Below are positions 24,846-64,000 of a stretch of DNA of 64,000 nt, one piece after another. Position 1 is the first letter of the stretch. Every line of letters starts with the position of its first letter. The DNA comes from Syntrophobacterales bacterium Delta_02 (GTDB lineage Bacteria > Desulfobacterota > Syntrophorhabdia > Syntrophorhabdales > Syntrophorhabdaceae): positions 8 through 64,007 of the forward strand of contig LVAA01000062.1 in assembly GCA_001603955.1 (NCBI GenBank). The letters run 5' to 3'. The translations under genes and the position numbers were made by a program. The notes under the pieces are model-generated. The model saw only the letters and a list, made by a program, of their open reading frames with translations. It was not told where the DNA came from and searched no databases.

Positions 24846-25946
24846 TCAGCGCACATCCACCTTGTGCCACGAAGTACCCGTCTCATTGCTGAAATAGATC
24901 CACCCACGCTTTCCCACGGCCGCAAAGCCTGCCTTTCCCCGCTGACACACGCCGCCTATGAATCCATACGTTACCGGAGGATCCACCTTGGCAGGCTCCA
25001 CGTTGCCGGGGTTATCCCTTCCCGACGCGAGAAGCCCCGTACCACCCATGATGATCCTTCCAGCATTGTGGGTCACGGCAAAGATGTGCGTTCGCGGTAA
25101 TGTAACGTTCATCTTGTTCCATGTCGCTCCCCCGTCCGTTGTCCTCCTGACGATGCTGTCTATCCCGACCGCCCATGCCGTGCGGGGATCTATCGCCGTG
25201 ATCTGAAAGAGGTAATCATCGGCCTCGATCTCACCTGTTGCATCGGAGATCACGTACCTCCCGGCCTGTTTTGTCCACGTAGCGCCACCGTTGGTTGTGT
25301 GAAAGATGTATCCGTATTCCCCGCAGGCCCACCCATTCATCTCATCGCAGAAGGAAACGCCCCTGAGAATGAAATCTGTATCCTTGAACTGAACGGCCCA
25401 TGTCTTGCCGCCGTCATCCGTGTGGATTATCGTTGTCTTTTCGCCCACGGCCCAACCTTTCAGTGGACTCAGGAACTGAACCCCCATGAGGAGAAGCGCG
25501 ACAGGGCTTTTCTGTTTCACCCACGTCTTCCCGCCATCGGATGTGTGAAGGATCGTGCCTCTGTCTCCCACGGCCCAACCGGTCTTTGCATCGACAAAAC
25601 TTATCGAGGTCAGGAGATCGATCGAGCCTGTGTTCTGTTTCGTCCACGTCTTCCCGCCATCGGATGTGTGCAGGATCGTACCCCACCGACCGCAGGCCCA
25701 TCCGTGGGTCTCGGATCCAAAACTTACCGAGAGCAGGTCGTGGGGATATCCCAGTCCTGAACCCGAAACCGCCGGGGCGCGCAGGAGAGCGAAGCAAAAG
25801 CACGACAGCACCAGGATCATAAACATCCTCGCGAGCAGTGACCTGGCAGCAGGAAACCGTCCTGATACCTTTCGGTGAGATCCAATGTTCTTCGGGTAAA
25901 ACTGCATTCTCCTCGTCTCCTTCATGTGCGGCAACCTCCCCTGCAC
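24846..25946 (-). CDS. BNR/Asp-box repeat beta-propeller protein (Ycf48-like)
   Basis: 366 aa. Signal peptide and repeated Asp-box motifs (TSDGGKTW twice, TDDGGKTW, TNGGATW, TDGGATW). Confidence 0.75.
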   Translation of the reverse strand: MQGRLPHMKETRRMQFYPKNIGSHRKVSGRFPAARSLLARMFMILVLSCFCFALLRAPAVSGSGLGYPHDLLSVSFGSETHGWACGRWGTILHTSDGGKTWTKQNTGSIDLLTSISFVDAKTGWAVGDRGTILHTSDGGKTWVKQKSPVALLLMGVQFLSPLKGWAVGEKTTIIHTDDGGKTWAVQFKDTDFILRGVSFCDEMNGWACGEYGYIFHTTNGGATWTKQAGRYVISDATGEIEADDYLFQITAIDPRTAWAVGIDSIVRRTTDGGATWNKMNVTLPRTHIFAVTHNAGRIIMGGTGLLASGRDNPGNVEPAKVDPPVTYGFIGGVCQRGKAGFAAVGKRGWIYFSNETGTSWHKVDVR

Positions 25947-32728: not shown

Positions 32729-32787
32729 GTCTCCCGTATGATCGTTCGCGGCTCTTGACAGGCTGCTGAAAAAACCTTCTTATCGTC

Positions 32788-32808
32788 ATCCCGGACTTGA
32801 TCCGGGAT
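32788..32808. repeat. REP-like palindrome of the widespread VIPDLIRDP-type class
   Basis: ATCCCGG-ACTTGAT-CCGGGAT. A degenerate IPAFAGMT-type copy follows at about 32864-32887 (CACCGGCCTTCGCCGGAATGAAGG). Confidence 0.6.
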
Positions 32809-33043
32809 CCAGAGGCTTTTCTATCCCCACGTATTTCCCGGAGGTCGCTTCCGCGAGTGAAGACACCGGCCTTCGCCGGAATGAAGGGAAAGCATGAACC
32901 AAACCCGGAAACAACTCCGTCAAGAACCCGTTAAGAAACTAACTATAACCGAAGCCGCGGGGAAAGTGAAGCCCGATGGGGGCGGTGGCATTCTGCTATA
33001 CTGTATGTATACGGCCTACGAGATGTGGAAGGAGGTAGATGGA

Positions 33044-40309: not shown

Positions 40310-42241
40310 ATGTGGCCCATGGCCACACCCCTTCTCCCCATGACACAGGCCGAGGTAAAGGACCGCGGGTGGGACGGCCTCGACGTCGTCCTCGTGACCG
40401 GCGACGCCTACGTGGACCATCCTTCCTACGGCACCGCCGTCATCGGGCGCGTCCTCGAGGCGGCGGGCTTTCGCGTCGGCGTCATCGCTCAGCCGGACTT
40501 CAGGACCACGCGCGATCTCAGCCGCTTCGGAAGGCCCCGGCTTTTCTTCGGCATAACCGCCGGCAACGTGGATTCCATGGTCGCCAACTATACCGCGCAC
40601 AAACGCCCGCGGCTAAGCGATGATTACTCTCCCGGAGGAAAACCCGGGCTGCGTCCCGACCACGCCGCCATCGTCTACGCCAACAGGGCCCGCGAGGCTT
40701 TCAGGGACGTCCCCATCGTGCTCGGCGGCATCGAGGCAAGCCTCCGCCGGTTCGCCCACTACGACTGGTGGAAGAACGAGGTCCGGCGTTCCATCCTTCT
40801 CGACAGCAGGGCGGACATCCTCGTGTACGGCATGGGGGAGGCACAGGTGGTAGAGATAGCCCGGAGGCTCGCGGCGGGTGAGAACCTTCACGGGATCAGG
40901 GGAACAGCGGTGGTGACGGCCGCAGGCCGCACCACCTCGCAGGTCCCATGCCACACGTCGCAAGGGACAGCACAAGGGCAAAAGACTGAATTCTCCCCAA
41001 ATGCCGTCTCGGCAATATCTGCATTCCGAAACGGGAAAGGGGAAACGGGAAACCTGAAACGTGTGACCTGCGACCTGGGACTTGTAGTTGAGATCCCTTC
41101 GTATGAGGAGGTAAGGGGGGATATCGACAAGTTCAATGAGGCATTCCGGATCGTTGTGGAGAACCAGGATCCCTTTACGGGAAAAACACTGGCGCAGGGG
41201 CATGCCAACCGCTTCGTCATCCAGTATCCCCCTGCCCTGCCGCCGGACACGAAAGACCTCGATGCCGTTTACGAGCTTCCCTATGCTCGCCGCTGCCATC
41301 CGTCGTATGACAGGGCGGGGGGCGTGCCCGGTTTCGAAACGGTACGCTTCTCCATTATTTCCCACCGGGGTTGTCCCGGCGAGTGCTCGTTCTGCGGCCT
41401 CTCTCTCCACCAGGGGAGGATTGTCTCGTCGCGAAGCGAATCGTCGGTACTGAAGGAGGCCGGGACACTTGCGAGGAGAAGGGATTTCCGCGGCACCATC
41501 ACCGACGTGGGCGGTCCTACCGCCAACCTCTACGGGGCTGTCTGCGGAAGGTGGCAGGGAAAAGGGGCCTGCGGCACCCGTCACTGCCTCACGCCTTCGC
41601 CGTGCAGGAACCTCAAGCCCGGTTACGAAAAGGGCCTTTCCCTTTATGGAAAGCTGCGCGCGCTGCCGGGCGTCAAACACGTCTTCATCGAGAGCGGCTT
41701 CCGCCACGACCTTCTTGTCGACCCGAAGGCCCGCGGCTATCTCGAAAGGATCTGCAGGGACCATCTGAGCGGGCGCATGAAGGTTGCCCCTGAACATTCT
41801 TCCGACAGGGTCCTCGATATCATGAACAAACCCTCCTTTTCGGTATACGAGCAATTCTCAGCCCTCTACCACTCGATATGCAGAAAGCTGGGGAAGGACC
41901 AGCACCTCGTCAGCTATTTCATCAGCGCCCACCCCGGCTGCACACTGGAGGATTCTCTTTCCCTCGCCCTGAGACTTGGCGAACTGGGTATCCACCCCGA
42001 ACAGATACAGGATTTCATGCCCCTGCCAATGACCCTTTCCGGCACCATATATCACACAGAGAAAGACCCTTTCACCGGAAAACACGTGTATGTCCCCAAG
42101 ACCTTCCGGGAGAGAAAGATGCACCGCGCCCTCATCCAGTACAAGAACCCGAAGAACACCCCGCTGGTCAGGGAGGCGCTGAAACTCCTCAAGAAGGAGT
42201 ACCTGCTGCCGAGGCTGATGCCGGGGAGAAAGACGGTTTAA
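40310..42241 (+). CDS. ygiQ: YgiQ-family (UPF0313) radical SAM protein
   Basis: ORF 40244..42241. The start at 40310 or 40319 aligns with family N-termini ([34 protein letters not shown]). Radical SAM motif [12 protein letters not shown]. Confidence 0.85.
40937..41083. repeat. Intragenic heptad-repeat segment inside ygiQ (look-alike of the intergenic composite elements)
   Basis: 8 consecutive heptads GAAACGG GAAAGGG GAAACGG GAAACCT GAAACGT GTGACCT GCGACCT GGGACTT (41028-41083). ACGTGTGACCTGCGA (41059-41073) is complementary to TCGCAGGTC...CACACGT (40937-40958). AAAAGACT at 40980-40987. Confidence 0.5.
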
Positions 42242-42399
42242 ACCGCTTGAACCGCTTGAACCGCTTGAACCGCTTGAACGTTAAGAACGAAAGACGGGAG
42301 CGAACGAGTACGGTCTGACTCCGGGTTGTCATGCGTGGGACGGACCCTGTCCGCTCCTTCATTTCCAGTTTCTAACGTTCAAGCGGTTCAAGCCGTCTT
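42230..42399. repeat. Composite hairpin element, 9-mer class, with (AACCGCTTG)x4
   Basis: Perfect 4x 9-mer at 42241-42276. Inverted partner AACGTTCAAGCGGTTCAAGCC at about 42374-42394. Termini AAGACGG (42230-42236) and CCGTCTT (42393-42399). The ygiQ stop TAA lies at 42239-42241. Confidence 0.8.
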
Positions 42400-42478
42400 T
42401 CCCCGGTCTTTGTTTGCCTTACCCCCTGTTTCGTTGTATGATACCACGAATATCAGGTCAACAAGGGGGTCGTAGGAA

Positions 42479-43165
42479 TTGGTGACGGGGAATATTGTCT
42501 GGCACAGGTTCGTTTGTCTTGCGGGGATCCTTCTTATCGCGGTTGCCTTGCTCCCTCCCTCCTCCGCCGAGGCGGCGCGGCGCAGGTCGCTTCATGCCGG
42601 AAAGGACGTTAGGGGGATCACATTCGAGGAATTCTGGGCCAAGGCCCGCGAGGAAGGGATGAAGTGGGCAGGCAGGCGGCTAAGGGTGCGAAGGATCGTA
42701 TCTGTGGCCGTGGTGGGTTTTGATGGACGCAACGGACGCTCGCCTGTCTGGGAGGCACAACTGGTGCGTTGCGACAGGACCCAGTCGCCTGACGATGAAG
42801 AGGTCATCTCAAGGATATGCAGGGGAAAGACGATCACGGTCCGCATGGTGGAGGCAGGAGTGGAAAGGGCCGACCCCGGGGTACACGTATCAAAGGAGAG
42901 GCCTTTCCGGGGCGCTTCCATCCCCGAGGAGAGGATCGTCATCAGTCCCCAGCGTGCTGAGGAAACGGCCAACAAGTACAAGCAATACAACCCTGCCGAG
43001 GTCGACAGTTACAGCTATGAACTCAGGTATGACCACAGGAATGACAGGCCCCTCTGGGTCATCAAGAGAACCTGCGGCTACAGGGGCAAATCGGAAGGCC
43101 GCTGTCAGCCGGGCGACCACTGGATAGTCAAGGTCGACGCGGAATCGGGAGAGATCGCAAAGTGA
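42479..43165 (+). CDS. Hypothetical secreted protein
   Basis: 228 aa with a TTG/GTG start after an AAGGGGG SD. Signal-peptide-like FVCLAGILLIAVALLPPSSAEA. Confidence 0.5.
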   Translation: MVTGNIVWHRFVCLAGILLIAVALLPPSSAEAARRRSLHAGKDVRGITFEEFWAKAREEGMKWAGRRLRVRRIVSVAVVGFDGRNGRSPVWEAQLVRCDRTQSPDDEEVISRICRGKTITVRMVEAGVERADPGVHVSKERPFRGASIPEERIVISPQRAEETANKYKQYNPAEVDSYSYELRYDHRNDRPLWVIKRTCGYRGKSEGRCQPGDHWIVKVDAESGEIAK

Positions 43166-43306
43166 AAGACCGCTTGAGCCGCTTGAATAGCTTGAGCCGC
43201 TTGACGGCTTGCTGACAAAGTGGACTTATGCGTCATTCCGGCGAAGGCCGGAATGACGACAAAACAAAGAAAGACCGAACCGAGAAGCGGTTTTATCAAC
43301 GGTCTG
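43166..43306. repeat. Composite hairpin element, 9-mer class, with a nested REP-like palindrome
   Basis: Starts right after the stop TGA (43163-43165): AAGACCG CTTGAGCCG CTTGAATAG CTTGAGCCG CTTGAC. The right part is GAGAAGCGGTTTTATCAACGGTCT. The core holds a 12-bp perfect stem at 43231-43258. Confidence 0.7.
43231..43258. repeat. REP-like palindrome of the widespread IPAFAGMT-type class
   Basis: CGTCATTCCGGC-GAAG-GCCGGAATGACG. The minus-strand translation reads VIPAFAGMT. Confidence 0.7.
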
Positions 43307-43329
43307 TTGAAGGTGAACGAGGACAATAC

Positions 43330-43821
43330 ATGAAAATACTGCTGTCACCGATCACGAAGGATGATGCCCGGCAGATCATGGAGATCTTCAACTATTACAT
43401 TGAGAACACCTTTGCGGCCTATCCGGAGCATCCCCTTCCCGATGATTTCTTCGAGATGCTTCTCATCATGAGCAGCGGGTATCCGACGGTTGTCGCCAGG
43501 ACAGAGGACGGGATGGTGACCGGGTTCGGCCTGCTTCGGCCTTACAATCCCCTCCCCGCCTTTTTCAAGACCGCCGAGATCACCTATTTTCTCAAACCCG
43601 GTTTCACGGGCCAGGGCATCGGCAAGGCGATACTCGACTATCTCCTCGATATGGCAAAGGAGAAAGGGATCAACGCGGTCCTCGCGAACGTGTCGTCCCT
43701 CAACGAGGAAAGCATCGCCTTCCACCTGAAGAACGGCTTCTCCGAATGCGGCCGCTTCAGGGAGGTAGGCCAAAAAAAGGGACACGTCTTCGACGTGATC
43801 TACTTCCAAAAACTGCTCTAA
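43330..43821 (+). CDS. GNAT-family N-acetyltransferase
   Basis: ORF 43228..43821. The upstream extension crosses a repeat, so the start is taken at 43330 (MKILLSPITKDDARQIMEIFNYYIENT). GNAT motif A-like FTGQGIGKAILDYLL. Confidence 0.85.
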   Translation: MKILLSPITKDDARQIMEIFNYYIENTFAAYPEHPLPDDFFEMLLIMSSGYPTVVARTEDGMVTGFGLLRPYNPLPAFFKTAEITYFLKPGFTGQGIGKAILDYLLDMAKEKGINAVLANVSSLNEESIAFHLKNGFSECGRFREVGQKKGHVFDVIYFQKLL

Positions 43822-43979
43822 AAGACGGTTCCAAGTCTCAGGTCTCAGGTTTCAAGGAAAAGATAAAAACTGTCCTGGTCAGTCCCTCTTCGGTTTTTGA
43901 CTCGAAACGCGCAACCCGGAACCTTTACAGCAACTGTCTTTTGCCTGAAACCTGGAACTTGAAACCTGAAACCGTCTTC
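43822..43979. repeat. Composite hairpin element, GGTTTCA heptad class (type specimen)
   Basis: 9-bp terminal inverted repeats AAGACGGTT (43822-43830) and AACCGTCTT (43970-43978). Left arm GGTTCCA AGTCTCA GGTCTCA GGTTTCA. Right arm CCTGAAA CCTGGAA CTTGAAA CCTGAAA. Fills the gap between the convergent stops at 43821 and 43982. Confidence 0.85.
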
Positions 43980-43981
43980 AA

Positions 43982-45538
43982 CTATCTTTTGATCATCATC
44001 TCGATCAGGTGTGGGCCCGGCTCTTTCATGGCCCGTTTCATTTCCCGGGCCAGCGCCCTGGCGTCTTCGACGCGGGTCGCGCTGACGCCGAGGCCCCGGG
44101 AGAGATCGACCCAATCTATGGGGGGACTGTCGATATCGACGAGAGCACGGGCCGCCTTGCCGGGATCCGTCAGGCCTGCCCGCTCCAGTTCCATGGCGAT
44201 GATGCGGTATCCGCCGTTGTTGCACAGGAGCGTAGTGACGTTCAGGTCTTCGCGCGCCATCGTCCAGAGGGCCTGAACGGTGTACATGGCACTGCCGTCC
44301 GCCTGGATGTTGATGACGGTCCGCCCGGGCGCGGCAAGAGCGGCGCCCACGGCACAGGGCATCCCGTAGCCGATGGCCCCTCCCGCGATGGTCATGAAAC
44401 CGTGAGGGGCACATCCATGGGAAAGGGGATAGTAGGGGAAAGATGTCGTCAAACCCTCGTCGACGACGATCCCTTCCTCGGGCTGCAGGGCCGCTATGAC
44501 CGCCGAGACCGTCTCCGGCGTGAGGGGACCTGTCGGAAGGGAAGACCTTTTCGCGTACGTGCCGCACCCCTTCGCCACCGCCGCCTTCCCCGGCCTGCCG
44601 ACACAGTCCGCAAGGGCCTCGAGCGCCTCGCTCACGTCCTGACCGGAATGGTCTATGGCAATCTTCGCGGCCCCGTCAGGGATAACACTACCGGGGACGC
44701 CCTCGTAACCGAAAAAAGTGACGGGGTCCCAGGCACCCGCCAGGACAACCACATCGTACCGCGCCATAAGCTCCATCGCCGACTCCGGAAAGTAGGGGAT
44801 CCTCGTCACTGCCGGCAGTGATCCGCCGCGGTCCACGTACCCGGGAAAGCTGTTGGCCAGAAGGTCACACCCCGTTGCCGCGCGGATGCGCGCCGCCGTC
44901 AGCAGTCCCTTTATGCGCAACGCCCTCCCCCCGAGGACCATCGCCGTTCTTCTGCCCGTCCTCAGAACCCTTGCCGCCCGGTCCACAGCCTCGAGATCGA
45001 CGGGCTCGAAGGAGGGAGAGGCCATGATAACGGGAATATCGGCGCAGTCGGCCCACTGATGGTCATTGGGGATTATGAGGCTCGCCACCTGACCCCGGGC
45101 ACCCGCCGCTATGACCGCCGCCATATCCCGCGAGAGGCTTCTGTGGCTCCTGCAAGTCCTCTTCCATCCTGAAACGGTCCCCGCCAGCGCCGCTATGTCC
45201 ATGTTAAGGGGAGGGTCCGCGTGGCGATGCCATGATGCGTGCTCACCGATAACGTTGACGACGGGCGACATCGCGCGCCGCGCGTTGTGAAGACAGGCTA
45301 TCCCGTTCGCAAAACCGGGACCAAGGTGGAGAAGGGCCATCGCCGGCCTGTCGAGGACCCTTCCAAAACCATCGGCCGCACCCGTGCAAACCCCTTCGAA
45401 GAGGCCGAGCACGCACCTTATGCCCGGCTCCTTATCAAGGGCCGCAACGAGCGGTATCTCCGTCGTCCCCGCGTTGGCAAAACAGATATCGACACCATTC
45501 AGGACAGCCGTCCTCAAGGCCAGTTCCGCGCCGTTCAT
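43982..45538 (-). CDS. Thiamine-pyrophosphate enzyme, acetolactate-synthase-large-subunit-like
   Basis: ORF 43982..45757. The N-terminal 73 codons run through repeats, so the start is taken at 45538 (MNGAELALRTAVLNGVDICFANAGTTEIP). TPP motif GGAIGYGMPCAVGAALA. Confidence 0.85.
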   Translation of the reverse strand: MNGAELALRTAVLNGVDICFANAGTTEIPLVAALDKEPGIRCVLGLFEGVCTGAADGFGRVLDRPAMALLHLGPGFANGIACLHNARRAMSPVVNVIGEHASWHRHADPPLNMDIAALAGTVSGWKRTCRSHRSLSRDMAAVIAAGARGQVASLIIPNDHQWADCADIPVIMASPSFEPVDLEAVDRAARVLRTGRRTAMVLGGRALRIKGLLTAARIRAATGCDLLANSFPGYVDRGGSLPAVTRIPYFPESAMELMARYDVVVLAGAWDPVTFFGYEGVPGSVIPDGAAKIAIDHSGQDVSEALEALADCVGRPGKAAVAKGCGTYAKRSSLPTGPLTPETVSAVIAALQPEEGIVVDEGLTTSFPYYPLSHGCAPHGFMTIAGGAIGYGMPCAVGAALAAPGRTVINIQADGSAMYTVQALWTMAREDLNVTTLLCNNGGYRIIAMELERAGLTDPGKAARALVDIDSPPIDWVDLSRGLGVSATRVEDARALAREMKRAMKEPGPHLIEMMIKR

Positions 45539-45548
45539 GAAAACTCCT

Positions 45549-45620
45549 GGTGATGGGTCATGGGTGATGGGAAAGACTCGAAGGCCATACCTATTACCCA
45601 TGACCCATGACCTATAACCC
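45549..45620. repeat. Composite hairpin element, GGTGATG/CCCATGA heptad class (copy 1)
   Basis: Left arm GGTGATG GGTCATG GGTGATG GG. Short core GAAAGACTCGAAGGCCATA. Right arm CCTATTA CCCATGA CCCATGA CCTATAA CCC. Lies 11 nt upstream of the ATG at 45538. Confidence 0.8.
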
Positions 45621-45637
45621 GTTCTATGTTTTTTTTC

Positions 45638-45667
45638 AGTATATATGGAACCGCTAGGTTCTGACAA
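45638..45667 (-). promoter_or_regulatory. Candidate sigma70 promoter for the TPP-enzyme gene
   Basis: The minus strand reads TTGTCA (45662-45667), 18-nt spacer, TATACT (45638-45643). This would place element 45549-45620 in the 5' UTR. Confidence 0.3.
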
Positions 45668-45682
45668 GGTATATTGAGAATC

Positions 45683-45770
45683 AGGTGAGGCGGGTGATAG
45701 GCTATGGGAAGAAATGCGGGTTGGAACCGTTGGAACCGTTACACCGTTCTTCCCCATGACCCATGACCCG
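45683..45770. repeat. Composite hairpin element, GGTGATG/CCCATGA class (copy 2, degenerate left arm)
   Basis: Left AGGTGAGGCGGGTGATAGGCTATGGG. The core contains tandem GGAACCGTT x2 (about 45723-45740). Right CCCATGA CCCATGA CCCG. Confidence 0.6.
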
Positions 45771-45863
45771 ATTTGCCCCTGGCACCTATTTTTGTCCCGT
45801 CCGTACCGGTCATCTTGTTATCCCCGGCCAAACAACTTATAATAGAGTTGATTTGAGAAGAAA

Positions 45864-45945
45864 GGTAATAGGTAATAGGTGACGGGCGGCCGACCATGAC
45901 CCTGCGGTTCTTTTTCCCATCACCCATGACCCATTACCCGTAACC
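45864..45945. repeat. Composite hairpin element, GGTAATA/CCCATTA class (copy 3)
   Basis: Left GGTAATA GGTAATA GGTGACG GG. Right CCCATCA CCCATGA CCCATTA CCCGTAA CC. Ends 18 nt before the ATG at 45963. Confidence 0.8.
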
Positions 45946-45962
45946 TGTTTCATCGAGGTTCC

Positions 45963-49215: not shown

Positions 49216-49553
49216 AAAGAGAAAAGATGGACAAAAAAGCCGAGGCTCACGAACCCCCCGAACGCTTCGAGACGACCCGGCACTACATCTCGGCACTCCT
49301 CGAGGAAGGGACATACACATCGAAAGAGCTGTCGAGCATCGTCAAGATACCGGAGAGGGACATCTGCGACCACCTGGAACACCTGCAGCGCTCCCTGAGC
49401 AAGGGTGACAGGCGCCTCACCGTGATCTGTGCCTCCTGCAAGCACTGCGGGTTCGTCTTCAAGAAGCGCGACCGCCTCACAAAACCCGGCAAATGCCCCT
49501 CCTGCCGCTCCATCCACATCCAGCCACCGGTGTTTCATATAGAACAGTTTTAA
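49212..49553 (+). CDS. Small HTH plus zinc-ribbon regulator-like protein
   Basis: 113-aa C-terminal part of ORF 48918..49553. The ATG at 49212 overlaps the upstream stop (ATGA). CASCKHCGF...CPSCRS zinc-ribbon. Confidence 0.6.
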   Translation: MKREKMDKKAEAHEPPERFETTRHYISALLEEGTYTSKELSSIVKIPERDICDHLEHLQRSLSKGDRRLTVICASCKHCGFVFKKRDRLTKPGKCPSCRSIHIQPPVFHIEQF

Positions 49554-49657
49554 GTGTTAAGTTTTAAGTGAAATACCCTGCGAGGCAGAAGACGTTCGGT
49601 GCAGACTCTCACCGCCGGGCATTCAACACTTAAAACTTAACACTTAAAACTTAAAAC
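49547..49657. repeat. Composite hairpin element, GTTTTAA/GTGTTAA heptad class
   Basis: Left arm GTTTTAAGTGTTAAGTTTTAAGTG (49547-49570). Right arm CACTTAAAACTTAACACTTAAAACTTAAAAC (49627-49657), its reverse complement plus one extra unit. The first unit supplies the stop TAA at 49551-49553. Confidence 0.85.
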
Positions 49658-49716
49658 GGTAACTTCTCATCATTATTGCAATTACCAAGCTTTTCTGTTA
49701 TATATTTCGATTGCCT

Positions 49717-52438: not shown

Positions 52439-53701
52439 ATGGGAATGACCATTACGGAAAAGATACTGGCAGCGCACGCGGACAAGGACCGGGTCGAACC
52501 CGGGGAGATCGTGGATTGCAGGATAGACCTCGCCATGGCGAACGACATCACGGCGCCCCTCTCCCTCGAGGAATTCGAGAAGGTCGGGGCGAAGGACGTC
52601 TTCGACCCCAACAAGGTCGTCTTCGTCCTTGACCATTTTACACCCAACAAGGATATACTCTCTGCCGAGAATTGCAAGAGGATACGGGAATTCTCGCGGA
52701 AGTACGGGATCGTCAACTTCTTCGAGGGCGGCGAATGCGGCATAGAACACGCCCTGCTGCCCGAGAAGGGGCTCGTGGTGGCGGGCGACCTCGTCATCGG
52801 TGCTGACAGCCACACCTGTACCTACGGGGCCCTGGGAGCCTTCTCCACGGGCATGGGCTCGACGGATGTGACCTACGGCATGGTGACGGGACGCACCTGG
52901 CTGAAGGTCCCTGAGAGCATCAAGTTCCATTGCTACGGGAAATGGCAGAAATGGGTGACGGGAAAGGAACTCATCCTTCACATCCTGGGCATGATCGGGG
53001 TTGACGGGGCGCTTTACAGTGCCATGGAATACGGCGGTGAGGCAATAGCCGCCCTGTCCATGGATTCGCGCTTCTCCATCGCCAACATGGCCATCGAGGC
53101 CGGGGGGAAGAACGGCATATTCCCTGTCGACGACAAGACAATAGCCTACATGAAGGAACACGCCACGCGGCCCTACAAGGTCTACGCGAGCGACAGCGAT
53201 GCGAAATACAGCCAGGTGCATGAGATCGACGCCTCGAAGGTCGGCTTCGGTGTCGCATGCCCCTCGCTTCCATCAAACGTGCGAGACGCGGGGGAACTGG
53301 GCGACATAGACATAGACCAGGTCGTCATCGGTTCCTGCACCAACGGCAGGCTCGAAGACCTGGAGATGGCAGCCGTCATCCTCAGGGGAAAGAAGGTCAG
53401 GAAAGGTCTGAGGTGCATCGTTATCCCCGCAACCCCTGCGATCTACGGCGAGGCCATGCGACGGGGATACTTCCAGACATTCCTCGACGCCGGCTGCATC
53501 ATATCGCCGCCCACCTGCGGCCCCTGCCTCGGAGGCCACATGGGCATACTGGCAAAGGGAGAGAGGGCCGTGGCCACAACGAACAGGAACTTCATCGGAA
53601 GGATGGGGCATCCCGAGAGCGAGGTCTACCTCGCCGGTCCTGCCGTGGCGGCGGCCACCGCCATCAAGGGGAAGATAGTACGCCCTGAGGAGGTAATATG
53701 A
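52439..53701 (+). CDS. leuC: 3-isopropylmalate dehydratase large subunit (short, type II)
   Basis: 420 aa. Aconitase-family Cys motifs including VIGSCTNGR and PPTCGPCLG. Confidence 0.9.
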
Positions 53702-54183
53702 TCGTCAAAGGAAGGATCTGGAAATTCGGCGATAATATCGATACCGATATCATCATACCCGCAAAGTATCTCGCGCACACCGACCCGAAGGTCCTGGGAC
53801 AGCACTGCATGGAACCCCTTGCCCCGGACTTCTCGAAGGAGGTCAGGGCCGGGGACATTATCGTCTCGGGTACCAATTTCGGCTGCGGGTCGTCCCGGGA
53901 GCACGCACCGCTCGCCATTACCGCGCTCGGTATACCCCTTGTCATCGCAAAGACCTTCGCCCGGATATTCTACCGCAACGCCTTCAACAAGGGCCTGGCG
54001 CTCCTGGAAGCGGACATCTGCGATCTCGTGAAGGACGGTGACGAGATCGAGGTCGACATCTCGACGGGCATTATCCGCTGCGGCGAGAGTGAGGTCAAAG
54101 CCAAACCCATCCCCCCCTTCATGGTGGAACTCATCAACGAGGGCGGGTTGATAAACTATCTCAAGAAAAAGCTGGAGGGCTAA
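53698..54183 (+). CDS. leuD: 3-isopropylmalate dehydratase small subunit
   Basis: 161 aa. [13 protein letters not shown] motif. ATGA overlap with leuC. Confidence 0.9.
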
Positions 54184-55200
54184 ATGAAACAGTACAACGT
54201 AGCAGTCGCCGGAGCCACCGGCGCGGTCGGAAATGAAATGGTAAAAGTCCTCGAGGAACGGAATTTCCCGGTCAAGAACCTGACGCTTCTCGCTTCCTCG
54301 CGGAGCGTGGGCAAGACTATGAGCTTCCATGGCGAAGACGTAAAGGTGCAGGAACTGAAGGAGGACTCCTTCAAGGACATCGATATCGGCCTGTTCTCCC
54401 CCGGCGGATCCGTCAGCCTCAAGTTCGCGCCCATCGCGGCGGCAAGTGGATGTGTCGTCATCGACAACACGAGCGCCTTCAGGATGGAGAAGGACATTCC
54501 CCTCGTCGTGCCCGAGGTCAACGAGCACGCGATCGCTGAGCATACAAAGCGGGGCATCATCTCTAACCCCAACTGCTCCACGATCCAGATGGTCGTCGCC
54601 CTGAAACCGCTCCACGACGCGGCGAAGATCAAGAGGATCGTCGTATCCACCTACCAGGCCGTCTCGGGGACGGGCCAGAAGGCCATCACAGAACTGGAGA
54701 GCCAGGTGCTCGCCATATACAACATGAAAGAAATAGAGAAAAAGGTCTATCCCCACCAGATCGCCTTCAACGTCCTGCCCCATATCGACAGTTTCCTCGA
54801 TACGGGCTACACCAAGGAAGAGATGAAGATGGTCAACGAAACGAAAAAGATCATGGAAGACAAATCCATCAAGGTCACGGCGACAACCGTGAGGGTCCCC
54901 GTCTTCTACGGACATTCAGAGTCGGTGAACATCGAGTTCAAAAGCGAGATGACACCGGAAATGGCACGGCAGCTCCTGAAGAAGGCCCCCGGCATAAAAG
55001 TGGTCGACGACCCGGGAAAGAACATGTACCCCCTCGCCATCGACGCCGCCGGCAAGGACGATACCTACGTGGGGAGGATCCGGGTTGACGATACCGTCAA
55101 GTACGGACTCAACATGTGGATAGTCGCCGACAACATCAGAAAAGGCGCCGCCCTGAACGCCGTCCAGATAGCGGAAGCCCTGGTAAAGAAATACCTGTAA
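54184..55200 (+). CDS. asd: Aspartate-semialdehyde dehydrogenase
   Basis: 338 aa. VAVAGATGAVG NAD motif and active-site SNPNCSTI. The start abuts the leuD stop. Confidence 0.9.
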   Translation: MKQYNVAVAGATGAVGNEMVKVLEERNFPVKNLTLLASSRSVGKTMSFHGEDVKVQELKEDSFKDIDIGLFSPGGSVSLKFAPIAAASGCVVIDNTSAFRMEKDIPLVVPEVNEHAIAEHTKRGIISNPNCSTIQMVVALKPLHDAAKIKRIVVSTYQAVSGTGQKAITELESQVLAIYNMKEIEKKVYPHQIAFNVLPHIDSFLDTGYTKEEMKMVNETKKIMEDKSIKVTATTVRVPVFYGHSESVNIEFKSEMTPEMARQLLKKAPGIKVVDDPGKNMYPLAIDAAGKDDTYVGRIRVDDTVKYGLNMWIVADNIRKGAALNAVQIAEALVKKYL

Positions 55201-55221
55201 CCTTACACACCGGAACTCACG

Positions 55222-55254
55222 AACCCTCCCCCTGAAAGGGAGGGTTTTTTCTTT
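55222..55254 (+). terminator. Rho-independent terminator between convergent asd and the hybrid kinase gene
   Basis: Stem AACCCTCCC / GGGAGGGTT (55222-55230 / 55238-55246), followed by a T-tract. Confidence 0.75.
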
Positions 55255-55284
55255 CACGGCCTGCCCTGAATGCGCTAAAGCCTG

Positions 55285-58688: not shown

Positions 58689-58719
58689 CCCATCACCCAT
58701 GACCCATCACCTGTTACCC
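58689..58719. repeat. Solo arm of the CCCATGA heptad class
   Basis: CCCATCA CCCATGA CCCATCA CCTGTTA CCC. No convincing partner arm upstream. Confidence 0.6.
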
Positions 58720-58773: not shown

Positions 58774-59349
58774 ATGCCCGATACCATTGCAACAGACGGA
58801 TCCGTAAGAGAGCTGACCTTCCAGGTCCCTCTTTCGGAGATCTACAAGTTCAACGAACCGGAAAAGGTGAGCGACCTTGGTCAGGTCCTGGAGGCCGGCC
58901 GGCAGAAACCTGCCGCCATGGGTCCCGCCAAGAGGTTCATCACAAGCACGATAGGGATATTCTGCCTCATGATCGGCCTTACGGGCCTCTTCGGCCGGAA
59001 CCCCGATATCTTCAGCGTCCTCTGGATCATCTTCGGAACGGTGATCATCTGGGTCTTCCTGGCAAAGCCGGAGATGGACAAGAGGAAGGCCGGGGGCGCC
59101 TCCGACACGAAGAAGGAACCCGAGGTGACCCTCGTCGTCAACTCCAACAGGATAGTGATACGCTTACCCGGCAGTGAGACGGCAAGGGAGTGGACGGAAT
59201 TCCTTCAGTACAAGAAAACAAAGAAGGGGATCCACCTCCACTTCCTCGACGGCACAACGATCTGGCTGCCCGAAGAAGCTTTCTACGACAAGGACGAAAT
59301 GAAGGAACTTCTGCGGTTGCTTCAAAAGAAGGTTCCAGGTTCCAGGTGA
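58774..59349 (+). CDS. Hypothetical membrane protein (YcxB-like layout: two TM helices then a soluble C-domain)
   Basis: 191 aa. Hydrophobic pair ITSTIGIFCLMIGLTGLF / FSVLWIIFGTVIIWVFLA. The last 7 codons lie in a repeat arm. Confidence 0.6.
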   Translation: MPDTIATDGSVRELTFQVPLSEIYKFNEPEKVSDLGQVLEAGRQKPAAMGPAKRFITSTIGIFCLMIGLTGLFGRNPDIFSVLWIIFGTVIIWVFLAKPEMDKRKAGGASDTKKEPEVTLVVNSNRIVIRLPGSETAREWTEFLQYKKTKKGIHLHFLDGTTIWLPEEAFYDKDEMKELLRLLQKKVPGSR

Positions 59350-59459
59350 AAAACCTCTGAAGTAGAAGAGAGCTGTCCCTCTTGGGGCTTTGACTCGAAA
59401 CGCGCAACCCGGAACCCACAACTGTCTTTTGCCTGAAACCTGAGACTTGAGACCTTCTT
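59326..59459. repeat. Composite hairpin element, GGTTCCA heptad class, sharing a core with 43822..43979
   Basis: Terminal inverted repeats AAGAAGGT (59326-59333) and ACCTTCTT (59452-59459). Left arm GGTTCCA GGTTCCA GGTG. Right arm CCTGAAA CCTGAGA CTTGAGA CC. The core 59375-59453 is near-identical to 43882-43965. Confidence 0.85.
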
Positions 59460-59791
59460 TATCTTTTCGGTGGTTTCGTGGTTTCCAGCTCGGCTATCTC
59501 TTCTTCGATGTCGCGTATGGTGAGACGCATCCGCGTGATCGAGTTGATGCGGTCACGGATAAAGGGATCGTCGGAGGAGACGCTCTTATCGCAGGTGAAC
59601 TGGTCGTACACGTATTCGCCTATCTCCGCGTTCGTCTTTTGAATGGACCGCTGCAGCTTCGTAACGTCAAGATATTTCCGCTTGCCGATCATGGCCTGCT
59701 TCTCCACGCCGAAGGCTATATCCTGGGCCGTCTCCTTCAGCGTCTTCAACCCTTCCTCGGTCCTCTTCCTTATATCATCAATAAGCGCCAC
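59459..59791 (-). CDS. Hypothetical coiled-coil protein
   Basis: ORF 59459..59851. A GTG at about 59791 follows a GGAGG SD. A promoter-like TTGACC...CAGAAT lies inside the longer ORF. No family recognised. Confidence 0.45.
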   Translation of the reverse strand: MALIDDIRKRTEEGLKTLKETAQDIAFGVEKQAMIGKRKYLDVTKLQRSIQKTNAEIGEYVYDQFTCDKSVSSDDPFIRDRINSITRMRLTIRDIEEEIAELETTKPPKR

Positions 59792-59862: not shown

Positions 59863-59967
59863 AAGACCGCTCGAGCCGCTTGACGCCCCGTCGAACCTTA
59901 AAGAAAGACTTTGCCTCTGCATCTTCCGTTCAAACGGTTCAAGCGGTTCAAGCGGTTTCAACCGTCT
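59863..59967. repeat. Composite hairpin element, 9-mer class
   Basis: Left AAGACCG CTCGAGCCG CTTGACG. Core with GAAAGACT (59903-59910). Right GTTCAAACG GTTCAAGCG GTTCAAGCG GTTTCAACCGTCT, ending at the phosphofructokinase stop (59968-59970). Confidence 0.75.
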
Positions 59968-61137
59968 CTAATACAGAAACATCGGTTTCCCCAGCGTGTC
60001 GCGCACCTTTGGACGGTATGTCTCCACGTCGTACAGGGCAGTCACGTCGACCTGTTTCTTCGCGGCAACGACCATGTCCAGCGGGACCGTGGTGTATATC
60101 GCCTGATGGAGCGCCACCATGCGGCCCCTGTGGCCCATCGCTATCTGGTCGAGGGCCAGGCTGCCGTAAGACACGGCCACCATCCGGTCGAGGGAGTCGG
60201 GTGCTCCGGAACGCATCATGTAGGCAAGCTGCTGGTAGATGACGTTCACGCCCGAGCGCTGCTTTATCTCCTGGGAAATGATGTAACCCACACCGCCCAG
60301 CTTCTTGTGGCCGTAGGCATCCTCTATCCCCGTCTCGGTCACGGTCCCACCCACGGTATGAGCACCCTCGGAAATGGTCATGATCGCGTAGTTGGAGGGG
60401 TTCCTGGACCGGTCCGTCACGAGAAAACCGACGAGCCTGTCGAGGTCGAAAGGCACCTCCGATATGACCGCCCTGTCGACGTCGGCAAGGTAGGCCGCTA
60501 TGAGCGACGTTTCACCGGAGTTCCGGCCGAAAAGCTCGACGACACAGATGCGTTCATGGGAACCCGTCGTGGTCCGCAGGGCGTTGATGGCATCCACCGA
60601 GCGTGTGACGGCCGTCGAGAAACCGATGCAGAAATCCGTTCCGAACACGTCATTGTCCATGGTCTTCGGAATGGCGACAACCTGGACACCCTCCTTGTTG
60701 AGCCGGACCGCGTAGCTTAAGGTGTCGTCCCCGCCTATGGGGATGATCGCGTCTACTGCAAGGAACTCGAGAACCTTCAGGATATGCCTCGTGCAGTCGA
60801 TCCTTCCCGATTCCGTCGGGACCCGGTCGCCTGCCTCCACAAAGGGAGGCACTTCATCGGGATTAACGTTGCCCGGATTGGTCCGCGACGTGTGAAGGAT
60901 GGTCCCGCCGGTACGGTCGATGGTCCTCACCGTGTCGAGACTCAGAGGCATGACAAACCGCTGCGCCGTTTTCGGATTGTCGGGATCGATGTCGAGAAGG
61001 CCCATCCACCCTCTGCGGATACCCACCACGTCGATATCCTTCGAATCGGCACGGGCAACGACGGCCTTTATGGCCACGTTAAGCCCCGGAACATCTCCTC
61101 CCCCCGTCAGCACGGCGATCTTCTTCCTCCTTCCCAT
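59968..61137 (-). CDS. pfp: 6-phosphofructokinase, predicted pyrophosphate-dependent
   Basis: 389 aa. [21 protein letters not shown] (Asp rather than Gly) and IPKTMDND (Lys rather than Gly), which are the positions known to discriminate PPi- from ATP-dependent PFKs. Confidence 0.85.
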
Positions 61138-61225: not shown

Positions 61226-61436
61226 AAGACCGTTTCAGGTTTCAGGTTTCAGGTTTCAGGTTTCAGGTTTCAGGTTTCAGGTTTCAGGTTTCAGGTTTCA
61301 GGTTTCAGAAGAAAGACTGCGGGAGGAGGCCGGTTGTCAACACAATTACTGGCTGGTGCCATTTGCTCCGCCAGGGTCTCCCCCCGGTGGCCGTTTCTTG
61401 CCTTTGCCTGAAACCTGGAACCTGAGACCTGAAACC
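61226..61436. repeat. Composite hairpin element, GGTTTCA heptad class, with expanded left arm
   Basis: AAGACCG, then (GTTTCAG)x11, GAAAGACT at 61311-61318, and right arm CCTGAAA CCTGGAA CCTGAGA CCTGAAA CC (61407-61436). Confidence 0.85.
61232..61308. repeat. Perfect heptanucleotide microsatellite (GTTTCAG)x11
   Basis: 77 bp with no interruption. Begins 18 bp upstream of the -35 of the candidate phosphofructokinase promoter. Confidence 0.95.
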
Positions 61437-61479
61437 ATCAACGACCTGAACTTCGGAAACCGAAGTTCAGGTCGTTGAT
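61437..61479. repeat. Perfect 20-bp-stem palindrome
   Basis: ATCAACGACCTGAACTTCGG-AAA-CCGAAGTTCAGGTCGTTGAT. The right end overlaps the -35 of the candidate promoter for 61524..62567. Confidence 0.9.
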
Positions 61480-62567: not shown

Positions 62568-62646
62568 AAAAGGAAGACCCGGAAACTTGAACGAACAACG
62601 ACCATCAAGCGCGTTTTGATAGGTACACACGGAAAGGGAGCTCACA

Positions 62647-64000
62647 ATGATGGATAAGGTTTACGACCCCCACAGCATCGAAAAGAAATGGTACGCCGAC
62701 TGGCTGGAGAAGGGGTATTTCAAGGCAAAAAGTGATTCCGGGGAAGAGTATTTCTCGATGGTCATCCCACCGCCCAACGTCACCGGGTCTCTTCACATGG
62801 GCCATGCCCTCAACAACACGTTGCAGGACATCGTGACCCGGTATTTCCGCATGTGCGGGGTCAACACCCTGTGGCTTCCCGGGACCGACCATGCGGGGAT
62901 AGCCACGCAGAATGTTGTCGAGCGCGAGCTCGCGAAGGAAGACAGCGACCGCGAGGCCCTGGGAAGGGAAAAGTTCATAGAACGGGTCTGGCAGTGGAAA
63001 AAGCAGTCCGGCGGAACCATCATCGAACAACTCAAGAGACTCGGCGCGTCCTGCGACTGGTCCCGCGAGCGGTTTACTATGGACGAGGGGCTGACGCGCG
63101 CCGTCCGCGAGGTCTTTGTCAGGCTGTATAACGAAGGGTTGATCTACCAGGATAATTACATCATAAACTGGTGCCCGCGCTGCAAGACCGCCCTTTCCGA
63201 CCTCGAGGCGGAGCATGAGGAGACACAGGGGCACCTCTATTACATCCATTACCCCCTCGCCTCCGGCGAGGGACACCTGACCGTTGCGACTACCAGGCCG
63301 GAGACCATGCTCGGTGACACCGCCGTTGCCGTCAACCCCGAAGATCCCCGGTACGGGAAATATGTCGGGCAGGAGGTCATCCTCCCCATAGTCGACAAGA
63401 AGATCCCCGTCATCGGCGACAGTTACGTCGATGTCGAGTTCGGTACGGGCGCGCTGAAGGTCACCCCGGCGCATGACCTTAATGACTTCGAGATCATGAA
63501 GAGGCACGACCTCGCGCTGATAAAGGTCATAGACGAGAACGGCAACATGAACGAGAACGCCCTCCACTACAAGGGGATGGACCGCTTTGATTGCCGCAGG
63601 AAGATCGTCGAGGAACTCGAAGAGAAAGGTTACCTGGAAAAGACGGAGCCTTATCTCATGGGTGTGGGCAAGTGCTACCGCTGTAAGACCGTCGTGGAGC
63701 CCGCCCTCTCCCTGCAGTGGTTCCTGAGGATGAAACCGCTCGCCGAGCCCGCCATCGCCGCCGTGCGCGAGCACCGCGTCCGCATCATCCCGGAGATGTG
63801 GGAAAAGGTCTACTTCGAATGGATGGAGAACATCAGGGACTGGTGTATATCCCGCCAGATCTGGTGGGGCCACCGGATACCGGTGTGGTACTGCGAATCC
63901 TGCGGCGAGATGATCGTCTCCGTCAACGATCCACCGGCATGTACCAGGTGCGGCGGCGCCCTCAGGCAGGAATCGGATGTCCTCGACACCTGGTTTTCGT
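62647..64000 (+). CDS. valS: Valine--tRNA ligase (5' part, open at window end)
   Basis: Absent from the ORF track because it has no stop inside the window. ATG at 62647: MMDKVYDPHSIEKKWYADWLEKGYF...PPPNVTGSLHMGHALN (HIGH motif), GTDHAGIATQ, FTMDEGL. GGAAAGGGAG SD. Confidence 0.9.
   Translation, partial: MMDKVYDPHSIEKKWYADWLEKGYFKAKSDSGEEYFSMVIPPPNVTGSLHMGHALNNTLQDIVTRYFRMCGVNTLWLPGTDHAGIATQNVVERELAKEDSDREALGREKFIERVWQWKKQSGGTIIEQLKRLGASCDWSRERFTMDEGLTRAVREVFVRLYNEGLIYQDNYIINWCPRCKTALSDLEAEHEETQGHLYYIHYPLASGEGHLTVATTRPETMLGDTAVAVNPEDPRYGKYVGQEVILPIVDKKIPVIGDSYVDVEFGTGALKVTPAHDLNDFEIMKRHDLALIKVIDENGNMNENALHYKGMDRFDCRRKIVEELEEKGYLEKTEPYLMGVGKCYRCKTVVEPALSLQWFLRMKPLAEPAIAAVREHRVRIIPEMWEKVYFEWMENIRDWCISRQIWWGHRIPVWYCESCGEMIVSVNDPPACTRCGGALRQESDVLDTWFS

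Follow-up and report, generated by a model that had tools for sequence, protein, structure and literature searches.

Dispersed intergenic palindromes with tandem-unit arms at gene boundaries in Syntrophorhabdaceae

The DNA analysed here (the window) is a stretch of 64,000 nt from contig LVAA01000062.1 of Syntrophobacterales bacterium Delta_02, and about ten related palindromic elements are found in it, all between 42 and 62 kb. Their arms are arrays of short tandem units bracketed by an oriented AAAGAC(S)G motif, and the type copy (43822-43978, unstranded) lies between the stop codons of two convergent genes, one for a GNAT protein and one for a thiamine pyrophosphate (TPP) enzyme. With moderate confidence, we interpret these elements as a lineage-specific family of dispersed intergenic palindromes, similar to repetitive extragenic palindromic (REP) sequences and shaped by slippage and arm-to-arm copying, for which RNA hairpin effects are secondary.

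Type copy and family architecture

The GNAT gene ends in a TAA at 43819-43821, and the type copy begins at the next base with the terminus AAGACGGTT (43822-43830). Its right terminus, AACCGTCTT (43970-43978), is separated by a 3-base gap (43979-43981) from the stop codon of the TPP-enzyme gene (CTA, 43982-43984), and the convergent spacer of 160 bp consists wholly of the element. An earlier description made from the sequence alone (the sequence-only reading) had reported the 9-bp termini, the abutment on the GNAT stop codon and the 3-nt gap, and these were borne out by the sequence check; the right end it gave, 43979, is off by one. The left arm (43822-43865) is made up of AAGACGG, GTYTCAR heptamers and GGAAAAGATA, the core occupies 43866-43934, and the right arm (43935-43978) carries TGTCTTTTGCC, CTGRAAC heptamers and CCGTCTT. 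By stem detection, the arms are 42-44 nt long and 81% complementary, giving an imperfect palindrome with a predicted RNA fold of -58.4 kcal/mol on the plus strand (z = -5.8) and -72.5 kcal/mol on the minus strand (z = -6.9).

Throughout the family, the arms are tandem arrays of 7-9-nt units, and the array rows reported by Tandem Repeats Finder coincide with the arm positions. Several unit flavours are present in the window: GTYTCAR heptamers at 43822, 59325 and 61226 (11 copies in the last), the 9-mer AACCGCTTG at 42230, 43166 and 59863, GGTGATG/GGTCATG at 45549-45948 and 58689, and AGTTTTA/AGTGTTA at 49546. Across the Syntrophorhabdaceae loci 76 arrays were found, typically of 3-6 units. Each arm is bracketed by the motif AAAGAC(S)G, which stands at its outer and its inner end in fixed orientation, as in the two copies of AAAGACGG that flank the array at 42229-42297, or AAGACCG and AAAGACTG at 61226-61319. 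An arm module can be written as 5'-AAAGAC(S)G, a unit (usually beginning with SGT) repeated n times, (S)AAAAGAY-3', and two such modules are opposed across a variable core, so that a full element reads AAAGACSG-(unit)n-SAAAAGAY-core-RTCTTTTS-(unit')n-CSGTCTTT. The arrays lie on opposite strands, are convergent and capable of forming stem-loops, with loops of 8-330 nt. Arms of the elements at 49546 (25/25) and in a related locus, L083 (30/30), mirror each other in the order of their unit variants and are therefore true inverted copies; the unbalanced arms at 61226 (11 versus 4.3 units) are attributed to later slippage.

Statistics were drawn from a family set of 43 non-redundant elements from the window and related loci, with 86 outer and 86 inner arm ends. 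Exact AAGAC was present near 15 of the outer and 18 of the inner ends (background 2.6%), and in the opposite orientation near 0/86 and 1/86, respectively, which upholds the claim of the sequence-only reading that the repeats are dispersed copies of one family whose termini are defined and oriented. In 39 of the 43 elements the 5' arm is G-rich (G>C), a polarity that is not demanded by palindromy alone. In the window, AAGACSG occurs 39 times (20.6 +/- 4 expected), and 14 long stems were detected, eight of them scoring at least 20; four dinucleotide shuffles gave 0-1 stems each, none scoring at least 20. Folding z-scores over the elements range from -2.6 to -10.7. The arm flavours number at least ten and are mutually unrelated, and the internal cores are mostly unique: only the pair at 43822 and 59325 shares a core, the remainder being unique in the approximately 330 kb sampled. 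A core of the 61226 type (TGTCAACACAAT) is found again in L082 and also in L104, where it occupies the GNAT-TPP junction. Searches with Rfam covariance models returned no matching family at the gathering threshold or at E<=1, with only chance matches to miRNA hairpins at E>0.1; tandem arms have no unique alignment register. The GTTTCAG flavour had suggested that units vary by transitions only, and this was dropped as a rule for the family in view of the overall counts of 106 transitions and 69 transversions.

The other elements of the window are as follows.

42225-42410, unstranded: element at the 3' end of ygiQ, whose stop codon TAA (42239-42241) falls inside it; AAAGACGG (42229-42236), then 4.3 copies of the 9-mer AACCGCTTG and a second AAAGACGG (42290-42297); after the core, right arm GTTCAAGCGGTTCAAGCCGTCTTT and an additional CCGGTCTTT; termini AAGACGG at 42230 and CCGTCTT at 42393-42399.
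43166-43305, unstranded: degenerate 9-mer element, starting right after the TGA (43163-43165) of a PepSY-like open reading frame (ORF); left array 43166-43208, nested palindrome CGTCATTCCGGCGAAGGCCGGAATGACG at 43231-43258, right part AAAGACCGAACCGAGAAGCGGTTTTATCAACGGTCT ending at about 43305.
45549-45625, minus strand: short hairpin in the 5' untranslated region (5'UTR) of the TPP-enzyme gene, between the -10 box (45643-45638) and the Shine-Dalgarno (SD) sequence and ATG (45548-45536); arms of GGTGATG/GGTCATG heptamers, AAAGAC at 45572-45577.
45720-45769, unstranded: unpaired arrays in the divergent promoter region, 2.3 copies of the 9-mer GTTGGAACC and 2.4 copies of CCCATGA.
45862-45948, plus strand: hairpin in the 5'UTR of a PAS-histidine-kinase gene, between TATAAT (45838-45843) and the SD sequence GAGG (45955-45958); arms GGTAATA... 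and ...CCCATCACCCATGACCCATTACC.
49544-49660, unstranded: hairpin whose 25-bp arms pair perfectly and alternate AGTTTTA and AGTGTTA units; the upstream gene's stop codon, TAA (49551-49553), falls in the first unit.
58689-58711, unstranded: solo half-element, 3.3 copies of CCCATCA/CCCATGA, the C-rich strand being the plus strand; 63 nt 5' of a plus-strand gene start at 58774.
59325-59460, unstranded: paralogous to the type copy, its termini being AAAGAAGGT/ACCTTCTTT; the variants AAGAAGGT at 59326 and ACCTTCTT at 59452-59459 were confirmed by the sequence check; core 93% identical over 42 nt to that at 43882-43923; the upstream ORF enters the left arm by eight codons (stop 59347-59349), and at the right terminus there is overlap with the TAA of the convergent gene.
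59863-59967, unstranded: 9-mer-flavour element, AAGACCGCTCGAGCCGCTTGA ... 3.3 copies of GTTCAAGCG ... CCGTCT, adjoining the stop codon of the phosphofructokinase (PFK) gene (59968-59970); AAGACCG at 59863, CCGTCT at 59962-59967.
61226-61443, unstranded: element in a divergent region, 5' of both the PFK gene and an HD-domain gene; in order, AAGACCG, 11 copies of GTTTCAG, AAAGAC (61312-61317), core, and a right arm of 4.3 copies of CCTGAAAC; arms unequal, right end with no GTCTT partner.

The sequence-only reading had listed termini at 42230/42399, 43166, 59863/59967, 61226 and 59326/59459, and all are present. It missed the copies at 45549-45625, 45862-45948, 49544-49660 and 58689-58711, as well as the tandem arrays of the arms, the inner-end AAAGAC and the occurrence of copies away from gene 3' ends.

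Other repeats and genes of the window were seen alongside the family. Its first 42 kb hold no family element and include nine intergenic gaps of 100-300 bp. The 61226 element is followed, directly beyond its right arm, by an inverted repeat (ATCAACGACCTGAACTTCGG AAA CCGAAGTTCAGGTCGTTGAT, 61437-61479) that is perfect over 20 bp around a 3-nt loop, has no tandem units and lies 45 nt 5' of the HD-domain gene. Unrelated to the tandem-unit family is a second repeat, the small palindrome CGTCATTCCGGCGAAGGCCGGAATGACG and its variants (CGTCATCCCGGACTTGATCCGGGATCC, for example); sites of this type are at 43231-43258, 32783-32812 and 32864-32888 in the window, 5679-5702 in L001, 7567-7587 in L082 and about 9744-9762 in L002. 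They are nested in the loops of tandem-unit elements and also found elsewhere, and resemble a separate REP-like family. On the minus strand, four consecutive ORFs of 101, 112, 429 and 113 aa (52971-55257) have no Pfam match and stand where L106 and L108 have aconitase genes after leuA, and a 422-aa ORF (62605-63873) also has no Pfam match. At 25510-25731, a minus-strand coding region contains a tandem repeat of 123 bp in 1.8 copies (78% identity).

Position relative to genes and turnover between relatives

At all eight window junctions with an adjacent gene end, the element adjoins or overlaps the stop codon, and flush placement of this kind is also seen at many junctions in relatives. It is the G-rich arm that adjoins or overlaps the stop codons at these eight junctions, and the C-rich arm that adjoins the SD sequence in the 5'UTR copies. 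Three window ORFs terminate inside elements: ygiQ, the gene ending at 49553 and the gene ending at 59349. Promoters predicted at 45815-45843 (+) and 45667-45638 (-) place the hairpins at 45862-45948 and 45549-45625 in 5'UTRs, and the 3' ends of both hairpins lie directly against the SD sequences of the two divergent genes. Among the sampled loci, an element was present at 10/39 divergent, 16/126 co-directional and 9/42 convergent junctions, which corresponds to spacer densities of 1.3, 1.2 and 1.8 per kb; the sample behind these values is biased and its ORF calls are crude. Restriction to gene 3' ends is ruled out by the similar density per kb across junction types. The sequence-only reading had placed the elements precisely at gene 3' ends; flush placement is what holds as a finding, and the copies in divergent junctions and in two 5'UTRs show that the position is wider than it proposed.

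The longest-ORF calls for the GNAT and TPP-enzyme genes extend into the repeats (43228-43329 and 45539-45757; MRHSGEGRNDD... and MGKNGVTVPT...), the actual starts being at 43330 and 45538. These two over-extended calls illustrate how the elements will inflate ORF predictions in Syntrophorhabdaceae genomes, and for annotation they account for over-extended ORFs and contig breaks in metagenome-assembled genomes (MAGs) of this family.

The nearest genomes are Syntrophorhabdus and other Syntrophorhabdaceae MAGs, in which the TPP enzyme shares 66-75% identity and the GNAT protein up to 91%. Paired tandem-array hairpins number nine in the window, one in L001, six in L002 and eight in L003, and none were present in 72 of the 76 other-taxon loci fetched with the same protein query. 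Among the loci sampled, the family is confined to Syntrophorhabdaceae. When metagenomes were scanned for the right-arm junction, 23 loci with matching flavour and termini came up, many of them with the full architecture, and stop codons followed by an AAGACSG-type terminus were found in L082 (TAG|AAGACGG), L093 (TAG|AAGACCG), L098 (TAAAGACCG) and L091 (TAG|AAGAAGG).

Two kinds of similar sequence were encountered outside this lineage. Hairpins of tandem 7-8-nt units that lack AAAGAC occur in L028 (7972-8076), L034 (8004-8092) and L079 (3707-3773), from three MAGs of which one is assigned to Blastocatellia, one to Heliomicrobium and one is unclassified; Syntrophorhabdaceae are thus not alone in having this architecture. 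Arrays of 3-18 GTTTCAG units were also found in 25 diverse viral contigs (L110-L134; for example, L111 5882(-), L114 2008 and L125 9809(-)), mostly as solo arrays that appear on the other strand as CCTGAAAC repeats a few nt 5' of a start codon, and these resemble the TAACTGA repeats of Beggiatoaceae and cyanobacteria. Phages as carriers of the family were considered and found to be unsupported, the viral arrays being mostly solo, with neither AAGAC nor a partner.

Synteny was compared between the window and nine relatives in which the flanking genes are conserved. Of the relatives, L002 and L106/L107 share the window's 5'UTR hairpins, which are cleanly absent from L001, L108 and L003, where the -10 boxes are conserved; the promoters are conserved in the window and in L001, L002 and L003. 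At junction B (43166), the closest relatives, L104 and L105, hold only the left half of the element, that is, TGA|AAGACCG and three 9-mers, and the window has about 107 bp more, bounded by TTGA/TTGA. At junction C (42230), the arms in L105 have about two and one 9-mers, compared with 4.3 and two in the window, and the ygiQ stop codon lies inside the first unit. At the type junction, each relative differs in flavour or arrangement:

L104: arms of the 8-mer GTTCAAGA and a 61226-like core.
L135: CGTGAAG/CGTAAAG units.
L106: CAATCACC-type units.
L108 and L001: GTAATTA/GTAAGGA units.
L002: CGTAATT units.
L003: GGTTCAA units, with A5 and T7 flanks.
L136: rearranged GTTTCAG type.
L137 (GCA_029980365.1, 6330-6360): 16 nt between the stop codons (AGACAGTATAGAGTCC).

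The L137 spacer keeps only the two termini of the L108 element, and the genes in this MAG are fragmented, so an assembly artefact is possible. A hairpin is kept at the GNAT-TPP junction in nine of the ten genomes despite complete turnover of the sequence, and the unit beside the TPP-enzyme stop codon includes the gene's own CCG-TAA/TGA end in L001, L108, L002 and L135. Presence and absence, half-elements, changes in unit number and replacement of flavour together constitute rapid turnover between relatives. Had this been ordinary conserved intergenic DNA, which the sequence-only reading named as the outcome that would contradict it, relatives would share the same sequences; they show insertion/deletion polymorphism.

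Interpretation

Under the REP-like interpretation given at the outset, arrays would lengthen and shorten by replication slippage, and intrastrand template switching or gene conversion would maintain the complementarity of the arms, including the order of unit variants. Copies may spread and replace each other by recombination between similar arms or, alternatively, through a putative structure-specific enzyme that recognizes AAAGAC/GTCTTT at the base and the top of the stem. Elements that are transcribed within UTRs give very stable RNA hairpins, probably an obstacle to exonucleases and, between convergent genes, to read-through. Such a barrier role is plausible at some sites, as a secondary effect and not the family's raison d'être.

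Several points weigh against this interpretation. No mobilizing enzyme was found among the ORFs and annotated loci scanned and no target-site duplication at the polymorphic junctions; mobility is suggested solely by comparative presence and absence and by the common cores. Since the cores are mostly unique in the sampled sequence, many elements could have arisen or been remodelled in place, and the inclusion of CCG-TAA/TGA gene ends within units suggests local generation or remodelling of at least some arrays. Selection for a function, here treated as secondary, could lie behind the near-universal occupancy of the GNAT-TPP junction and the way in which elements exactly abut stop codons and SD sequences. 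The metagenome loci were chosen for carrying the element, which biases the counts by junction type, and the ORF calls behind these counts are crude.

The alternative that survives best, a tentative possibility, is that these are dedicated RNA elements, selected as bidirectional terminators and/or protectors of mRNA 3' (and 5') ends, with tandem-unit arms as simply an easy route to long stems. It would fit stems that are very stable on either strand, a GNAT-TPP spacer that is all element and so has no other terminator, the retention of some hairpin there in most genomes, and outer flanks that are moderately A-rich (0.30-0.43, background 0.22); the L003 orthologue has its A5 and T7 flanks in the manner of a classic bidirectional terminator. 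Transcripts in Xanthomonas start or stop at comparable repeats more than at controls (PMC4692102). However, five or more T in the 8 nt after the stem are found at only 17% of arm ends, a simple terminator scan called no family element, and copies lie between promoter and SD sequence, where an efficient terminator would silence the gene. The sense strand has 26 G:U and 45 A:C mismatches and is not consistently better folded, the antisense strand being the better in both 5'UTR copies; an optimized RNA structure, for which an excess of G:U is expected, was dropped as a candidate on these grounds. Given the rare T-runs and the negative scan, the bidirectional-terminator proposal of the sequence-only reading, taken in its canonical form, looks weak. 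Also counting against dedicated RNA elements are their similar occurrence per kb in divergent, co-directional and convergent junctions, the reduction to 16 nt in L137 and the absence from the 5'UTRs of L001 and L108.

Rather unlikely, in our estimate, is a broader explanation in which polar tandem-unit arrays are a general and so far unrecognized element of ORF boundaries, placed by an enzyme or in a manner coupled to translation, with AAAGAC(S)G as the recognition or cleavage site of the enzyme. The G-rich strand would come directly after stop codons and the C-rich strand directly before ribosome-binding sites or starts, and the same element would span Syntrophorhabdaceae, Geobacter, Xanthomonas, cyanobacteria and many phage contigs. 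A candidate enzyme might be, for example, of the HUH/Y1 type, or have a template-repeating activity that generates or mobilizes arrays; G-quadruplexes or regulator binding would not explain the arrays.

Classical MITEs (miniature inverted-repeat transposable elements), non-autonomous offshoots of an insertion sequence (IS) with a transposase that would bind AAGACSG as terminal inverted repeats and prefer gene ends, are very unlikely. A defined, oriented terminal inverted motif, a size of 100-220 bp, presence/absence polymorphism among relatives and one pair of window copies with a common core are what such elements would show. Against this, the motif also stands at the inner end of each arm, exact AAGAC is found at only about 17-21% of arm ends family-wide, there are at least ten arm flavours with mostly unrelated cores, and half-elements and tandem modules exist. 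Neither the comparison of filled with empty 5'UTR sites nor that of junction B, which has TTGA microhomology only, revealed a target-site duplication, divergence of the flanks limiting the power of this comparison. No transposase was found among the 10 window ORFs scanned or the Pfam-annotated orthologous loci, and no RAYT (Y1 transposase) gene was seen among those ORFs or the Pfam-annotated loci L106-L109 and L137. The MITE-like mobility raised by the sequence-only reading thus stands as far as the indel polymorphism in relatives goes, and its remaining hallmarks were not seen at the loci covered: duplications, a transposase and generally shared cores.

The least likely explanation is that these are binding-site arrays for a nucleoid-associated or global regulator (IHF/HU-like) or non-B DNA (G-quadruplex) elements: the architecture fits the class 3 pairs of Geobacter (inner flank GYCTTTC, then YCTGA-type heptamers), some copies are in promoter regions and the conserved AAAGAC could be a protein-binding site, but the units differ completely between copies and orthologous sites and so cannot be a specific binding site, they contain GG at most where a G-quadruplex needs tracts of G3+, and the Geobacter proposal is itself explicitly speculative (PMC2700814).

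Comparison with known repeat systems

The closest parallels are paired tandem heptamers. In Xanthomonas, GGGAATC heptamers (GGGGAYT in Nostoc) form approximately 70-75 convergent pairs (Rehm et al. 2015, PMC4692102); this single unit, with its G3 tracts, is transcribed and has been read as G-quadruplex forming, and the pairs cluster at or overlap stop codons (PMC4692102). Shared with the Syntrophorhabdaceae elements are the tandem heptamers with about four units preferred, convergent arrays on opposite strands that are able to form stem-loops, the G-rich strand on the coding strand 0-50 bp from or overlapping the stop codon, and the C-rich strand just 5' of starts; likewise, single or paired type is conserved between Xanthomonas species and length is variable. 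The Syntrophorhabdaceae family differs in its many flavours, which have no run longer than GG (GTTTCAG, AACCGCTTG, GGTGATG and AGTTTTA units all lack G3+ tracts), in having 8- and 9-nt units as well, in carrying AAAGAC(S)G at both ends of the arms and in the replacement of flavour between close relatives. When the features of the Xanthomonas type are taken one by one, tandem arrays, convergent pairing and the strand rule are all found here, and G3+ tracts are not.

A second parallel is provided by the 'predicted global regulator binding sites' of Geobacter metallireducens, classes 1-3 (Aklujkar et al. 2009, PMC2700814, Additional files 7-9). Class 3 consists of pairs of five tandem MTYCTGA heptamers with the inner flank GTCTTTC/GCCTTTC (PMC2700814, Additional file 9). 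These sites were given as annotation only, with a speculative IHF/HU role, and the published alignment does not include the outer termini (PMC2700814). They resemble the present elements in being multicopy, intergenic pairs on opposite strands, at variable distance, of 4-5 tandem 8-, 9- or 7-nt units. The Syntrophorhabdaceae right arm, GTCTTTTGCC followed by CCTGAAA units, is close to class 3 as a resemblance only: read as GTCTTTTGCC and (A)ACCTGA, it agrees with MTYCTGA at six of seven unit positions and in the flank motif, by eye against the published alignment. In contrast to the present family, the published sites come with no comparative or positional analysis.

TAACTGA intergenic heptamers are found in Beggiatoaceae, Cyanobacteria and Bacteroidetes (MacGregor 2015, PMC4679880), and cyanobacterial STRR sequences are a further case for comparison. 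These too are CTGA-containing tandem heptamers, abundant in intergenic regions and a few nt 5' of start codons. They differ in being almost all direct (169 direct sets versus one inverted), with no hairpin partner or AAAGAC boundary.

The REP, BIME and REPIN sequences of Enterobacteria and Pseudomonas include tagged REP super-families (PMC3116915, PMC3733652), and in REPs the stop codon is often provided by the terminus of the repeat (Di Nocera et al. 2013, PMC3733652). Like the elements described here, REPs are imperfect palindromes present outside genes in high copy number; most are inverted dimers whose spacers vary, and singletons exist too. Their types are species-specific and transcribed, and they lie 3' of ORFs with termini adjoining or supplying stop codons. 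The REP unit, however, is a palindrome of 20-40 bp with a GTAG or CGTC tag and a stem of 8-9 bp, whereas the Syntrophorhabdaceae arm is a direct tandem array that is not self-complementary and is tagged by AAAGAC(S)G. Extragenic palindromes near or overlapping stop codons are therefore common to both, and the self-palindromic unit with a GTAG/CGTC tag is absent here.

Intrinsic (Rho-independent) terminators have a short GC-rich stem, a loop of 3-8 nt and a U-tract. Bidirectional ones are similar to the present elements as hairpins between convergent genes with A-rich and T-rich flanks, as at the L003 junction. The family differs in its stems of 20-70 bp and loops of 10-300 nt, in the low frequency of a U-tract (about 17%) and in its 5'UTR copies. 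With MITEs it shares terminal inverted repeats and small size, and it shows neither a target-site duplication nor the conserved interior of a parent IS.

The family thus belongs to a known, mechanistically unexplained class, the paired tandem-heptamer repeats of Xanthomonas/Geobacter type. New to this class are the AAAGAC boundary motif, the many flavours with no G-tracts and the comparative evidence of turnover. Members of the class had previously been read as G-quadruplexes in Xanthomonas or as regulator sites in Geobacter, and the many flavours found here argue against G-quadruplexes as a unifying principle of paired heptamer repeats. The oriented AAAGAC(S)G that brackets the arrays is a concrete candidate recognition site, and for gain, loss and replacement at syntenic junctions between close relatives the comparative evidence is clean. 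The arrays are set exactly against stop codons and SD sequences, sometimes providing the last codons and the stop codon of a gene.

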